Part shown: in pieces, positions 26,523 to 31,825 of the stretch | How positions within the stretch are numbered: position 1 is the stretch's first letter | Layout of the letters: each line of letters begins with the position of its first letter | Assembly: GCA_030613665.1 (NCBI GenBank) | Contig: JAUWLN010000001.1 | Coordinates: 1-31,825, forward strand | From: Dehalococcoidia bacterium | Lineage (GTDB): Bacteria; Chloroflexota; Dehalococcoidia; Dehalococcoidales; RBG-16-60-22 | DNA: 31,825 nt | Reading direction: 5' to 3' | Notes under the pieces: model-generated | What the model saw: only the letters and a program-made list of their open reading frames with translations | Told to the model about the DNA's origin: nothing | Database searches by the model: none | Program-made: the position numbers and the translations under genes

Positions 26523-27275
26523 CTAGAGCATTACTGTGCCGCCATCCGCGCTCAGGCTTTGCCCGGTCATATAAGACGATTTCTCGGAAGCCAAGAACAT
26601 CACCACCGAGGTTATTTCTTCAGGCTGGCATATTCTTCGCATCGGTGTTTGCGGCAGCATCTCCTCAATATAGTGAGGACTGTCTTTCATAAATTGTTTC
26701 GTCAGCCCGGCGTCAACAACTCCCGGACAGACTGCATTGACTCTTATGTTGTGCTCAGCAGTGAGAGCCGCTAATGACCTGGTCACCGAGATTACTGCCG
26801 CCTTGGACGCAGCATAAGGCGCTGCCTGAGGTGCTGCCCTCCTGCCCTGCTGTGAGGAAATATTTATAATTCTGCCGAACTTCTGATTTATCATGTACGG
26901 CAAAACCGCCTTACAGAGGCGTACTGTTACCATCAAATTAAGTTCCACGATTCGGTACCAGATGGACTCCGGTGTTTCCAGGAACGGCAAGACCTTATTC
27001 CAGCCAATGCTGTTCACCAGCACGTCTATTCTGCCAAATTTTTCCGCAATTCCAGCGATAGCATCCTGGACTTTTTCTTCTTTGGTGGCATCAATGACTA
27101 CCACAGAAGCCTTGCCTCCGCCTGATTCTATCTCACGGGCTACTCGTTGCGCTTCTTCCTCTGCGCTGTCCAGGATAATCGTTATGCCGCCTTCTCGCGC
27201 AAAGCCCTGAGCAATATTTGCGCCGATACCGCCAGCCCCTCCCGCAACCACCACAACCATGTCTTTAAATTCCAT
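26523..27275 (-). CDS. Short-chain dehydrogenase/reductase (FabG-like classical SDR)
   Basis: GGAGGIG, IDVLVNS, NISS, YAASK, IRVNAVCPG, TGQSLSADGG. Confidence 0.92.
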   Translation of the reverse strand: MEFKDMVVVVAGGAGGIGANIAQGFAREGGITIILDSAEEEAQRVAREIESGGGKASVVVIDATKEEKVQDAIAGIAEKFGRIDVLVNSIGWNKVLPFLETPESIWYRIVELNLMVTVRLCKAVLPYMINQKFGRIINISSQQGRRAAPQAAPYAASKAAVISVTRSLAALTAEHNIRVNAVCPGVVDAGLTKQFMKDSPHYIEEMLPQTPMRRICQPEEITSVVMFLASEKSSYMTGQSLSADGGTVML

Positions 27276-27434
27276 TATCTCTCCTAAAATACCAGGGTTA
27301 TCATTTCAGACACATGCGGAAAAATTCAATAACTGATTTAACCCTAACTTAAAAAGGCCGATAATTCAACATGGGCAGGTAAATAGTGTTGAGGGAGTGG
27401 CGGATAACTTCAGTCAGGTTATTTGATTCCTGGC

Positions 27435-27716
27435 CTATTCCTCGGCTTCATCTATCTCCAGGGCTATTGTAATATCATCTTTAACGATACCTGCTACCAG
27501 GACCTTTAGCCCTGCCTCGGGTTCCACTCTGATTAACGCTTCGCTCACATCGACAATCCGAATCTTATCATCGACAATTACTTTCCAGGTATGGCCATCG
27601 ATGGCCTTGATGACGCCATTAAAATCAATGACTGCTGCTTCCTCTTTGACAGCCTCGATTTCTACCTCAAGGGCGAGGACAGACGGATTAACCGGAAAAT
27701 CGATAGAATAATCGGA
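27435..27716 (-). pseudogene. Start-less 3' gene fragment encoding a DUF5666-like repeat (not in the ORF track)
   Basis: Open minus frame between TAG codons at 27717-27719 and 27435-27437: ...VLALEVEIEAVKEEAAVIDFNGVIKAIDGHTWKVIVDDKIRIVDVSEALIRVEPEAGLKVLVAGIVKDDITIALEIDEAEE*. It matches the F.G.I..I.G..W.V...V.V.....I......G..V.V.G......A.EI pattern. No 5' start codon. Confidence 0.6.
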
Positions 27717-28214
27717 CTAATAAACGCCAGCCTGAACGATAAATACTGGGAAGATAATATATCGCGACTTGATGCGAGGCTTGGCAGGAAGGTATTCCAG
27801 AAGGAGCTGGCAGCGGCCGTAAGTCTGGAGGCACAGGTAAAAATGCTCTCAAAGCAGATATCGGCGCTGGAGAGGATAATTGAACGCAAGGAGAATCAAG
27901 GCCGGCCCACCGATGCGGAAGAGGCCAGGCTGGCAGCGATTCACAATGCACTGCCAGCATTTCAAGAGGTTCTGGAAGACCTGGCTCAAACAGATAAGGT
28001 TCTTGCCGAAGTCGCCCTCGGTGATGCGAGGGATATGACGGTGAATAATCCCAAGTTTGAAAAGGCCTACAATCGTTACCTGGATAGGGCCGAGCAGCAG
28101 ATGAATAAGGCCATGGCAGCGCTCGAAGATGGCAAGTCAGCCAGGGCGATTAAATATTTTAAGAACGCCTGGTATTATGCCCAGAAAGCTATTAGATATG
28201 CGAGCAGAAATTAG
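27678..28214 (+). pseudogene. 3' fragment of an all-helical domain protein; the ORF-track N-terminus (27591-27677) is antisense to the DUF5666-like fragment
   Basis: From about 27678 the frame is strongly protein-like (INRKIDRIIGLINASLNDKYWEDNISRLDARLGRKVFQKE...AIKYFKNAWYYAQKA). The upstream 29 codons are Cys/Asp-rich, lack an RBS and are better explained by the opposite strand. Confidence 0.55.
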
Positions 28215-28459
28215 GTGTATCGGTCTGCCTTCAAAAGAGCAAAGCATTTCTTAATACCGGCGACCGAATAGCTATATGGTAGGTTCTACTGTGAGCATCC
28301 TTTCCTATGACTTGCCTCTGAAAACCGGTCCAGTCGAAATAGCAGATTGAGGGAAGGGGTGGATTTGCCAATTGCACATTTCAGACTATTGTTATGTGTT
28401 AAGCGGTTAAAAAATTCAGATTTTTGTTTCTTAGCTGAGCCTAATCGCTGAGCTTCAAA

Positions 28460-29230
28460 TTAAATGGTAATTCGCATACCTTCTTTAGCCAAGGTGACCG
28501 GAGTATTTAAAATCTGAGAGACTAGTGCCGCTTCCTCTTTGATCTCTTTTTCCAGAGACGGATTCATGTGCACAGCGATTACCGTGGGCAGATATCCCTT
28601 GAGCTCTTGAAACTGGACCAGCTCTTCATGGAGAAAAGCTGGAGTGAGATGTCCCGTCTTTCTGGCAAATTCATCATAGCTGTTAGATACAGTTACATCA
28701 ACAATTAGCACCTGGGGGGACAGGTGTTGCCAGCAGTGTGATAGACCAGGCTCGGTATCTGCGGTATAGAATATAGCTTTTCCTTTATCGTCTTTGATTT
28801 GATAGCCAACCGTGATACCCTGATGGTTTACCGGTATAGCAAGGACTTCATACACGTCTATCCTCTGCGTTTCATAAGGCTCAATAAATTTGAAATTGAT
28901 GGCTGGTTTTTCTTCGGCTGACTCCTGAAATTTGGGATAGAGCGTGCCGTTTAGCAAGTGGGTTTCAATTGCCTGGCATACGCTAGGGGTAGAATAGACA
29001 TCGATGCCGCCGCCATTTAGGGCCAGGTTCAGCGCCAGGGTCGGAATGTCCCGAATATGGTCATAATGTTGGTGAGTTAATATAACCGCTTCAAGTTTGG
29101 TCTGGTCTAGCACAGATAAACCTGAAGTCAACCCGCCAGCGTCTACCGCCAAGACACCATCGATAACTATTGAAACGCACCTTGCTCCCTTGGATTCAAC
29201 GTTGTGCGCTCCTAAAATGTGAATATCCAT
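28460..29230 (-). CDS. Metallo-beta-lactamase-fold hydrolase, class II cyclic-nucleotide phosphodiesterase-like
   Basis: MDIHILGAHN start (ATG 29230), LAVDAGGL, THQHYDHIRD (HxHxDH), VNH...VGY, YTADT, GHLTP, VHM. Confidence 0.78.
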   Translation of the reverse strand: MDIHILGAHNVESKGARCVSIVIDGVLAVDAGGLTSGLSVLDQTKLEAVILTHQHYDHIRDIPTLALNLALNGGGIDVYSTPSVCQAIETHLLNGTLYPKFQESAEEKPAINFKFIEPYETQRIDVYEVLAIPVNHQGITVGYQIKDDKGKAIFYTADTEPGLSHCWQHLSPQVLIVDVTVSNSYDEFARKTGHLTPAFLHEELVQFQELKGYLPTVIAVHMNPSLEKEIKEEAALVSQILNTPVTLAKEGMRITI

Positions 29231-29261
29231 GGATTTATTTCGATTTCCCCAATAAAATACA

Positions 29262-30434
29262 TTAATAGGCAATACTTTCCGTGTTTGAGGCTTTTTGCTG
29301 CCCTTTGTAACCGGAGGCAAATGCCTCCACTGCGAATGGGCAGAACTGGGTACCGGAACATCTGGTTAGTTCCTGGATAGCATAGTCCGCACTTAGTGCG
29401 GCGCGGTAGGAGCGGCCCGTGGTCATCGTGTCAAAGGCATCGGCAATAGCCAGAAGCCTGGCTCCTATCGGTATATCCTCTCCTTTAATGCCATCTGGAT
29501 ATCCACTGCCATCATATCTTTCATGATGATGCAGGACGAGTATTCTCGCCTTTTCTAAAAATGGTATGTCTTTTAAGATATTTGAGCCTATTCTGGGATG
29601 TTGCCGTATTATTTCCCATTCGTGCTCATCTAGCGGCCCTGGTTTGCTCAGTATCCCATCGGCAATGCCTATTTTCCCAATATCATGAAGAATGCCGGCA
29701 TATTCCAGAATTTCAAGCTCATCTCTGGGGAGTGAAAGAGACAGGCCCCCCATGAGAGTGTATTCCATCACGCGTTGAGAGTGGCCTCGGGTATAATGGT
29801 CTTTGGCGTCGATGGCCGCCGCCAGTGCTTTAATTGTGCTTTTATAGGCACTAAGTACGCTCTGGTGTAACTGAGCGTTTTCCAGGGCTATGGCCGCTGT
29901 TGGTGCCACTGAAGTTAGCGTTTCTAAATCCTGCTCATTGAAATCGCTGCCATCCGTTTTATTTAGCACTTCAATTACGCCGATTACTTTGCGATGCACA
30001 ATGAGCGGGACACAGATAATGGATTTTGTGATGAAGCCGGTAACTTCGTCAATGCTTCCGTTAAAACGCCAGTCAGTGTTGACGTCATTGATTATTATGG
30101 GCTCTTCATGTTGGGCAACCCAGCCGGCAATGCCAGATTTGGCATTCAGCTTCATTTTCCGCAACGCCTTTTCTGATTTACCTTCAGCAATCTCGAAGCG
30201 CAGTTCTCGCTCCTCATCATCGAAGAGAAGAACTGAAGAGGCGGTAGCCTTAAGCGTGCGCTGCGTCATCTGTGTGATTTCTTTCACCAATTGGCTCAGT
30301 TCTGATACCGAGCCCACTTTTTTGCCAACGGCATAGAGAAGGTCCAGCATAGCGCCGGCTTCTTGGGCGACCGTACCGTATTCGTGGTCTGGTTTTCCCT
30401 CTGGCCTTGATTGGTCAAATTCAAATCCGGTCAT
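29262..30434 (-). CDS. GAF + HD-GYP domain phosphodiesterase
   Basis: GAF (GIAGWVA...PIIIND, SIICVPL...VIGVIEVLNK) followed by KDHYTRGHSQRV, LHDIGKIGI, HHERYDGSGYPDG, IADAFDTMT..RSYR. Start likely MTGFEF (ATG 30434). Confidence 0.93.
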   Translation of the reverse strand: MTGFEFDQSRPEGKPDHEYGTVAQEAGAMLDLLYAVGKKVGSVSELSQLVKEITQMTQRTLKATASSVLLFDDEERELRFEIAEGKSEKALRKMKLNAKSGIAGWVAQHEEPIIINDVNTDWRFNGSIDEVTGFITKSIICVPLIVHRKVIGVIEVLNKTDGSDFNEQDLETLTSVAPTAAIALENAQLHQSVLSAYKSTIKALAAAIDAKDHYTRGHSQRVMEYTLMGGLSLSLPRDELEILEYAGILHDIGKIGIADGILSKPGPLDEHEWEIIRQHPRIGSNILKDIPFLEKARILVLHHHERYDGSGYPDGIKGEDIPIGARLLAIADAFDTMTTGRSYRAALSADYAIQELTRCSGTQFCPFAVEAFASGYKGQQKASNTESIAY

Positions 30435-30505
30435 ATTTTTGGTTTGGCTCTGATTTTCTCGATGGCATACGGCTTTCATTTTCAGAATTCTCCAGGCTCT
30501 TATCC

Positions 30506-31825
30506 TTATGAGTAGTACCAATATACGTCATCTGGTTTACCGGTATCATCATGCTTGCCTTTTTCGCCCGGCATTTCAGTCTCTATGATATTTTCTGGAT
30601 TTTTACCGCCAAGTATTTCAACGATGCTTATTTCGTTACTGGTGATTTTTTCATCATCAAGCTGTAGATCGAGGTGTATCAGCCAGCCACTTCCTTCCTG
30701 AGCATCCCAGTTGCCCTGGTAGTTAAATACCACCTCGCCCCCGGCTATACCTTTAATGTCGAAGCGGGCAACCCCTTCGGCCATATACCGCAGGGCAATA
30801 GTATATTCTCCGCTCATCGGTTCTACAATACTTATCGATTGCGTGTCTTCAGACGAGAAATATGATTGCGAGCCCAGAATTTGGTTATAGGAAAAACCGC
30901 TCTGTGAAATTCCCGTGCTGGAGCCTGTCGGATCGGTTACCGAGGCAACCGCCGGCATATCAACCGTGATGATGATTTCAGATTTGGGGGGAGGCGTTGT
31001 CAAAGGTTGAGAAGGTACTGTCCCGGTTTCCACCTGAGTCTCCTTGCTGGGCGGTAACTGCACCTCTTCTCCCTGCGCGATAATACTAACCAATCCTTCT
31101 GTGGTCGCTACCTTTGTTGCGCCAGTTGCTCCGACCTCAGTCGCGAACATCGTGCCCCGTACTACGGCGGTGGCGGACGGTGTCTCAATCTGGTAATGCG
31201 AGCCAGGGTCTGCCATTTTCACCACGCGACTCCAGGTCCTGCCCAGCCATTGCTTCAAAACAATCGTGGTTGCACGCTCCTCATTAAATTCGATTTGCTG
31301 GATTTCCACATCACTGTTTGGTTCGAGTTTGATGGTACTGCCCTCGAAGAAAGTAAGTAGAGCATGAGAGTCTGGGGCCGTCTTTATACGTGCGCCTGCA
31401 TTTAAGGTCATACCGTCATCACCTGTTTGTCTACCGGTCGCTCCTGATTTTTGAATCTCAACGCTGCCCGATAGTATGCTCAGGGTACATTGGGAGTTTA
31501 ATGCTGGCGGTGAGAAAAGGGAGCCAGGTATCCCGGTAAGGATAACGCTCAGGATAAGGATGAAGGTCAGGGCGACAGGAATAGCGACCTTTTTGGGGCT
31601 TATCACCTGCCATATAGCCGGCCATATTTGGCTCATCCCATGGGGAGGTGCTGGACGTTCTGGACTTTTCCGGCTTCCCTGGCGAATCTTTGCCATCAGG
31701 CGTGCTTTAGCGGCATTCCGGAAAGCATCCGACGGGGCCACTCTGGGCAAAGTGGTTAAACGGAGCGCTGTGTGCAGTAGCGGCGCCACCTGTTCTTTAA
31801 CTTCGGGGTATGATGACCGACATTC
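30506..31825 (-). CDS. Membrane-anchored FecR-domain protein with a Chloroflexi anti-sigma-like N-terminus (5' end outside the window)
   Basis: The frame stays open to the window edge (ECRSSYPEVKEQVAPLLHTALRL...PSDAFRNAAKARL), then a TM (VAIPVALTFILILSVIL), FecR motif (IKTAPDSHALLTFFEGSTIKLEPNS...IETPSATAVVRGTMF) and a further beta-rich domain. Confidence 0.8.
   Translation of the reverse strand, partial: ECRSSYPEVKEQVAPLLHTALRLTTLPRVAPSDAFRNAAKARLMAKIRQGSRKSPERPAPPHGMSQIWPAIWQVISPKKVAIPVALTFILILSVILTGIPGSLFSPPALNSQCTLSILSGSVEIQKSGATGRQTGDDGMTLNAGARIKTAPDSHALLTFFEGSTIKLEPNSDVEIQQIEFNEERATTIVLKQWLGRTWSRVVKMADPGSHYQIETPSATAVVRGTMFATEVGATGATKVATTEGLVSIIAQGEEVQLPPSKETQVETGTVPSQPLTTPPPKSEIIITVDMPAVASVTDPTGSSTGISQSGFSYNQILGSQSYFSSEDTQSISIVEPMSGEYTIALRYMAEGVARFDIKGIAGGEVVFNYQGNWDAQEGSGWLIHLDLQLDDEKITSNEISIVEILGGKNPENIIETEMPGEKGKHDDTGKPDDVYWYYS

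Follow-up and report, generated by a model that had tools for sequence, protein, structure and literature searches.

Two truncated surface-protein gene remnants joined head to head in a Dehalococcoidales genome: a probable deletion scar at a short microhomology

Organization of the locus

The window analyzed in this study, a stretch of 31,825 nucleotides, is the whole of contig C160 of the Dehalococcoidales MAG G000 (1.64 Mb, 196 contigs, 86% complete, 5.5% contamination). Two open frames on opposite strands abut in the interval flanked by an SDR gene (26523-27275) and an MBL-fold gene (28460-29320), both on the minus strand. The left one, on the minus strand, is what remains of the 3′ end of a lipoprotein-like gene (27435-27680, with the coding part at 27438-27680 and the stop codon at 27435-27437). 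The right one, on the plus strand, is the 3′ remnant of a large secreted surface-protein gene and carries its last 181 aa (27669-28214, stop codon at 28212-28214). At the join lies the nonamer CAAGGGCGA (27668-27676), which is read as Ala-Leu in the minus remnant and as Lys-Gly-Glu in the plus remnant. Gene callers report a chimeric 207-aa ORF on the plus strand (27591-28214), of which codons 1-25 run antisense to the minus remnant, whereas codons 27-207 correspond to the helical plus remnant. It is followed by a non-coding 3′ flank (28215-28383) with 92% identity to the sister species G004, whose synteny with the window stops at 28383.

The start of the neighboring MBL-fold gene is likely misplaced. 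The listed TTG start gives 286 aa, and the orthologues in G010 and G006 have 256-257 aa and start at the equivalent of MDIHILGAHN. Because these orthologues start there, the true start is probably the internal ATG near 29230, which would abolish the apparent overlap with the GAF/HD-GYP gene.

The minus-strand remnant

The minus-strand frame extends from stop to stop over 27435-27716 (93 aa), and the first ATG, GTG or TTG in it is a GTG at 27548 that leaves only 37 aa. Residues 13-93 of the frame (27680 down to 27438) match the last ~80 aa of four proteins, P0001-P0004 (339-344 aa), at 61-71% identity; these proteins came from a search limited to longer proteins, with identities of 64-78%, and against P0002 (residues ~256-339) the identity is 73%. 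These full-length relatives start with a signal peptide that has an SSC/lipobox-like motif; an N-terminal region of ~200 aa, a tandem pair of beta repeats (about 65-70 aa each) and an acidic tail follow. Compared with this ~340-aa family, the remnant lacks ~255 N-terminal codons and keeps the last 5 residues of beta repeat 1 (VLALE, from 27680), the linker, the full repeat 2 and the acidic tail. A 16-nt direct repeat with a spacing of 210 nt (27451-27466 and 27661-27676) marks both repeat ends. The alignment with P0001-P0004 thus agrees with the initial annotation, which had seen here the end of one repeat followed by a full last repeat and a stop.

The "DUF5666-like" label given to these repeats is unsupported, because no Pfam or NCBIfam model matches the family, either as the fragment or as its full-length relatives. 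The likeness to Pfam DUF5666 lies in the tandem beta-rich repeats of ~65-70 aa within a secreted or lipoprotein-like protein. In contrast to members of that family, however, the 81-aa fragment and all four full-length relatives give no DUF5666 match at E<=10, nor does the 93-aa frame at E<=1. The weak Pfam matches that do appear are all to families of small beta-barrels, KOW and SH3-like among them.

The lipoprotein-like family (P0001-P0004; L027 8001-9035, L028 2124-3143) is known only from metagenome contigs, and the gene was not found in the 15 other species of the genus. One further sequence deserves mention. P0005, a 185-aa fusion ORF (L056 42-599; ENA ERZ25073497, on a 1100-bp contig with a coverage of 1.7x), begins with the N-terminal ATP-pyrophosphatase portion of a GMP-synthase-like gene and continues into the last repeat of the lipoprotein-like family; its breakpoint and that of the window are only ~8 codons apart. 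The fusion is either an independent second truncation close to the repeat boundary or a chimera produced at low coverage.

The minus remnant could also be read as the lost C-terminus of the FecR-domain gene at 30509-31789, split off by a 2.85-kb insertion. The two lie on the same strand, and the FecR-domain protein ends shortly before the next gene. However, the full-length relatives of the remnant have their own signal peptide or lipobox and ~200-aa region with no FecR domain, the FecR protein has no similarity to P0002 (E 2.9), and the junction partner is homologous to a surface-protein gene right up to the join. We therefore regard such an origin as very improbable.

The plus-strand remnant and the 207-aa ORF

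The plus-strand frame is open for 225 codons (27537-28214), and the ATG at 27591 gives the 207-aa ORF. An exhaustive HMMER search of 1.84 billion representative proteins returned 393 homologues at E<=0.001, and all of them match from residue 26-27 or later (about 27666-27669). Full-length homologues that include the N-terminal MAIDGLDD, which would have refuted the initial reading, were looked for, and residues 1-25 are covered by none of the 393 representative matches, only by near-identical copies of the same chimeric ORF at the same locus.

In every long homologue the helical domain sits at the extreme C-terminus (e.g., residues 438-617 of 618 or 746-929 of 931). The homologues that carry it are secreted proteins, commonly of 600-1500 aa and up to about 3100 aa, and the relatives in congeneric or family genomes and in metagenomes are likewise secreted, with 628-820 aa or more. 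The domains ahead of the helical module include beta-helix/NosD, FN3, PKD, HYR and InlB-B-type repeats; the full-length examples L005 (628 aa) and L043 (820 aa) each have a signal peptide, a beta-helix and FN3/PKD domains. Short homologues that appear to stand alone are fragments of larger proteins.

Aligned with these relatives, the plus remnant lacks the entire N-terminal part of its parent, at least 400-700 aa, as well as the conserved domain start of ~20 residues (AR..K...I..LE.A). The earlier description of a helical C-terminal domain followed by a stop therefore holds for the anatomy, but the domain itself is truncated. The family-invariant residues of the helical domain are all retained, and AlphaFold2 (with a 31-sequence alignment) predicts a five-helix bundle with a pLDDT of 94.8. 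The domain has no PDB match by sequence or fold, no Pfam or NCBIfam model and no named cluster in the ESM Atlas; searches of the AFDB clusters returned only the same uncharacterised C-terminal module and weak DUF5667-like matches. As an observation in its own right, this ~200-aa five-helix module (27669-28211; L005, L006, L043, P0006-P0155) ends diverse secreted proteins, including an ExeM/NucH nuclease. It is a candidate surface-anchoring or sorting domain and deserves a family definition.

Signals for expression are poor on both strands. The ATG at 27591 has no credible RBS, because the AGG lies only 2 nt upstream, it falls within the antisense-derived sequence, and the promoter-like matches for the plus ORF are weak (9/12). 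The 207-aa ORF has no signal peptide, while all of its relatives belong to secreted proteins. Together with the minus strand, which offers only the 37-aa start, these observations are in line with the initial view that neither piece has a credible start, RBS or promoter. The initial impression that both pieces are C-termini of surface proteins also fits the two families, lipoprotein-like proteins and secreted beta-helix proteins. Judged from the sequence, the remnants are probably not expressed.

The junction

The head-to-head junction of two start-less 3′ ends, initially placed at about 27680, is real, and the strand switch can be located at 27668-27680. Plus-strand homology begins at K27 (27669) and minus-strand homology reaches V13 (27680), so the two overlap by 12 nt. 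These 12 nt, AAGGGCGAGGAC, are therefore translated as KGED in the plus frame and as VLAL in the minus frame, each in agreement with its own family.

Comparison with full-length homologues narrows the breakpoint further. On the strand that corresponds to the window plus strand, the closest lipoprotein relative, L028, reads ...TTC TAC CTC AAG GGC GAC... at the homologous site, the surface-protein relatives L003, L043 and L005 read ...GCC AAG GGT GA(A/T) GAC AG..., and the window reads TTC TAC CTC AAG GGC GAG GAC AGA. The same switch is visible after translation, where the antisense of the intact L028 gene gives ...FDFYLKGDNN and the window ...LDFYLKGEDRR. CAAGGG[C/T]GA is common to relatives of both families, and the crossover lies inside it, within 27668-27676. 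Reading from these relatives, we infer that the actual parent genes carried the nonamer as well. A short shared sequence at a join is a signature of RecA-independent illegitimate recombination.

The same junction in other assemblies

Other copies of the junction were located by exact look-up of the junction-spanning 207-aa chimeric ORF. Three further DNA assemblies contain it: a 4477-bp contig of ENA ERZ25749332 (L057; 99.84% identity, window 27490-31825), a 2232-bp contig of JGI 3300042086 (L058; 99.68% identity, window 27267-28837) and a 1045-bp contig from Logan SRR22302361 (L059; 99.90% identity, window 27481-28525). In addition, the NCBI MAG GCA_044240365.1 encodes a junction-spanning ORF (P0157) with 6 of 207 aa changed, flanked by SDR ORFs on one side and on the other by a partial gene on the minus strand, which takes the place of the MBL-fold gene seen in the window. 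All four DNA assemblies, and the ORF of the fifth, agree on one orientation and one join, although these are contigs, which drop rare variants.

Two irregularities were observed in these copies. In GCA_044240365.1, the SDR orthologue next to the remnants is split by the gene calls into two ORFs (87 and 140 aa), which reflects either a frameshift or an assembly error. The JGI contig (L058) follows the window at 99.7% identity as far as 28837; from there on (L058 1572-2232), midway through the MBL-fold gene, it diverges, as a result of either a strain-level rearrangement or a chimeric contig.

A misassembly had been suggested for the window, in which the assembler would have joined two unrelated places. 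A fragmented MAG with 5.5% contamination makes such an error conceivable. However, the junction recurs in the four other sources, which were produced by different pipelines, and the outer ends of the locus are adjacent in a different species, G004 (see below). On these two grounds a chimeric join is excluded for practical purposes. The 9-nt overlap was also judged too short for a join by a k-mer assembler.

The sister species and synteny

In G004 the SDR gene has 98% nucleotide identity to that of the window and the same outer ends are adjacent, without a 639-bp segment that includes the junction (27493-28131 when the window is aligned to G004:C82, L012). Of the minus and plus remnants, about 19 and 27 codons, respectively, are retained. 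Since G004 lives without these 639 bp, the DNA is dispensable.

The retained codons have diverged strongly. Between G000 and G004, the SDR gene gives a dN of 0.012 and a dS of 0.041, and the 26 shared codons of the plus remnant give a dN of 0.083 and a dS of 0.60 (dN/dS 0.14). Most of the mismatches, eight of 11, are found no more than 27 nt from the G004 deletion edge (window 28132-28158 versus L012 2468-2494). In this cluster the reading frame and similar residues are kept, and the dS is ~15x that of the SDR gene. A simple nested deletion does not explain the divergence of the 26 shared codons. The high divergence beside the deletion suggests either that this patch has a different ancestry or that repair at the deletion was error-prone.

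Beyond the equivalent of window position 28383, the G004 contig (L012 2690-3544) carries a string of gene fragments, including a tyrosine-recombinase-like piece (...GRRQIALSPSTTLALTEH...) and the C-terminus of a TauE/SafE-like membrane protein, which suggests that the locus is a "junkyard" of degraded mobile elements.

The neighbors found beside the SDR orthologue in G008 and G001, and beside the MBL/HD-GYP pair in G010 and G006, differ from those in the window. Given these unrelated neighbors in other species of the genus, the locus is a synteny break. No tRNA or att trace of an integrated element was found in the window or in G004, and the tRNA-Ala that adjoins the SDR gene in G008 has no match at the window locus.

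It has been considered whether the 207-aa chimeric ORF could be a young functional gene, that is, a cytoplasmic helical protein with an antisense-derived N-terminus which is expressed and kept in several populations in a new role. The ORF is open with the same start and stop in five assemblies, one of them differing at 6 residues, the invariant residues of the domain are all kept, and the truncated domain still folds in silico at the pLDDT given above. On the other hand, the ORF has no RBS, weak promoter-like matches and no signal peptide, unlike its secreted relatives. The first ~20 conserved residues of the domain are gone, most of the ORF is deleted in G004, and the short homologues that might have served as precedents are pieces of larger proteins. 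In our judgment a new gene of this kind is distinctly improbable.

Another proposal was that the two pieces are silent cassettes, of a shufflon-like or gene-conversion kind, which provide a variable surface protein with alternative C-termini and abut where crossover takes place. Both parent families are indeed secreted or surface proteins, and the occurrence of the helical domain on many N-terminal architectures shows that it is a mobile module over evolutionary time. However, the two pieces come from unrelated families and are not alternative ends of one protein, and the genome has no expression locus and no constant 5′ segment; searches with protein, profile and DNA queries revealed no additional copy of either remnant. 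The initial statement that no recombinase or clear repeat site is visible in the window also holds. Only imperfect repeats of 12-24 nt, at chance level, occur in 26800-29000, with none at the junction; no tyrosine or serine recombinase is encoded on the 31.8-kb contig, all PF00589 and PF00239 matches of G000 being on other contigs. The single orientation and join in the assemblies described above argue in the same direction, and G004 has simply deleted the region. Silent cassettes are thus a highly implausible explanation.

Origin of the junction

The locus is best explained as a non-functional rearrangement scar in which two unrelated truncated genes have their 3′ ends joined at a microhomology of ~9 nt, probably by one deletion; we assign this reading a probability of about 0.8. 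The initial annotation had listed an inversion or deletion scar among its possibilities, and a scar is supported by the two 3′ remnants, the join at a microhomology and the loss of most of both remnants in the sister species. The locus shows partial cover of the full-length homologues, missing translation signals and erosion in the close relative G004, all of them marks by which pseudogenes are recognized. Against a scar stands the fact that both frames are still open, with the 207-aa ORF intact in a MAG in spite of its 6 amino acid changes. This fits either a recent origin or weak selection.

The simplest course of events would be as follows. The ancestor of G000 and G004 would have carried, beside the SDR gene, a divergent accessory pair that consisted of a lipoprotein-like gene of ~340 aa on the minus strand and a secreted beta-helix surface-protein gene of roughly 600-900 aa on the plus strand. 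One deletion between direct copies of the nonamer, by RecA-independent illegitimate recombination, would have taken the spacer together with the promoters and 5′ parts of both genes. What is left has no start, RBS or signal peptide and is drifting and eroding, and G004 has since lost a further 639 bp. That the join arose by deletion and not in another way is what we infer.

One deletion between a divergent pair stays an interpretation because an intact ancestral pair of lipoprotein and surface-protein genes was not found in any genome or contig searched, and the full-length relatives occur in other contexts. P0002 and P0004 have unrelated neighbors, and a contig scan of the genomes with P0002 found nothing. 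The nearest surface gene of the full-length type, a 728-aa beta-helix/Flg_new_2 gene, is at another locus and in another context. A 59-aa ORF (P0159, ERZ24794666) lies 240 bp after it and is 90% identical to the end of the plus remnant, and this 728-aa gene is the best candidate for the parent type of the plus remnant.

The main alternative to a deletion is an inversion with breakpoints in two co-oriented genes, in which case the reciprocal junction of the two 5′ halves would lie elsewhere in the chromosome. An inversion predicts the head-to-head geometry of two 3′ ends, and the microhomology fits it as well as it fits a deletion. The search of G000 for the missing 5′ halves, which had been recommended as a check, found neither residues 1-255 of the lipoprotein nor any beta-helix N-terminal part resembling the one in P0160, an 816-aa relative that stands in here for the actual parent. 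With an assembly that is 86% complete and in 196 contigs, the reciprocal junction could be unassembled. However, the lipoprotein gene is also in no searched species of the genus, and a deletion requires only one event and no hidden partner. We consider an inversion unlikely, and a single deletion remains the preferred explanation.

Implications for annotation

The locus is an ordinary product of gene decay, and its relevance lies chiefly in annotation. Public protein collections contain the 207-aa ORF; both it and the 37-aa ORF called on the other strand ought to be marked as remnants and not as genes, and the locus should not be mistaken for a phase-variation system. It offers a clean, small case of gene loss through microhomology, at a variable surface-protein locus of the streamlined Dehalococcoidales genomes.

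Comparison with known systems

In the R64-type shufflon, the Rci recombinase acts with sfx repeats on alternative C-termini of PilV. The window resembles it in having start-less C-terminal segments of surface proteins which face each other on opposite strands. It differs in that a recombinase, sfx-like repeats and a constant 5′ segment are all missing, only one orientation is seen and the segments belong to unrelated families. Known microhomology-mediated gene remnants in bacteria share with the window the truncated start-less coding sequences, the join inside a short shared sequence, the continued erosion in a related lineage and a position among accessory genes where synteny breaks. In contrast to such remnants, those in the window are free of stops and frameshifts, and their join creates a 207-aa ORF.
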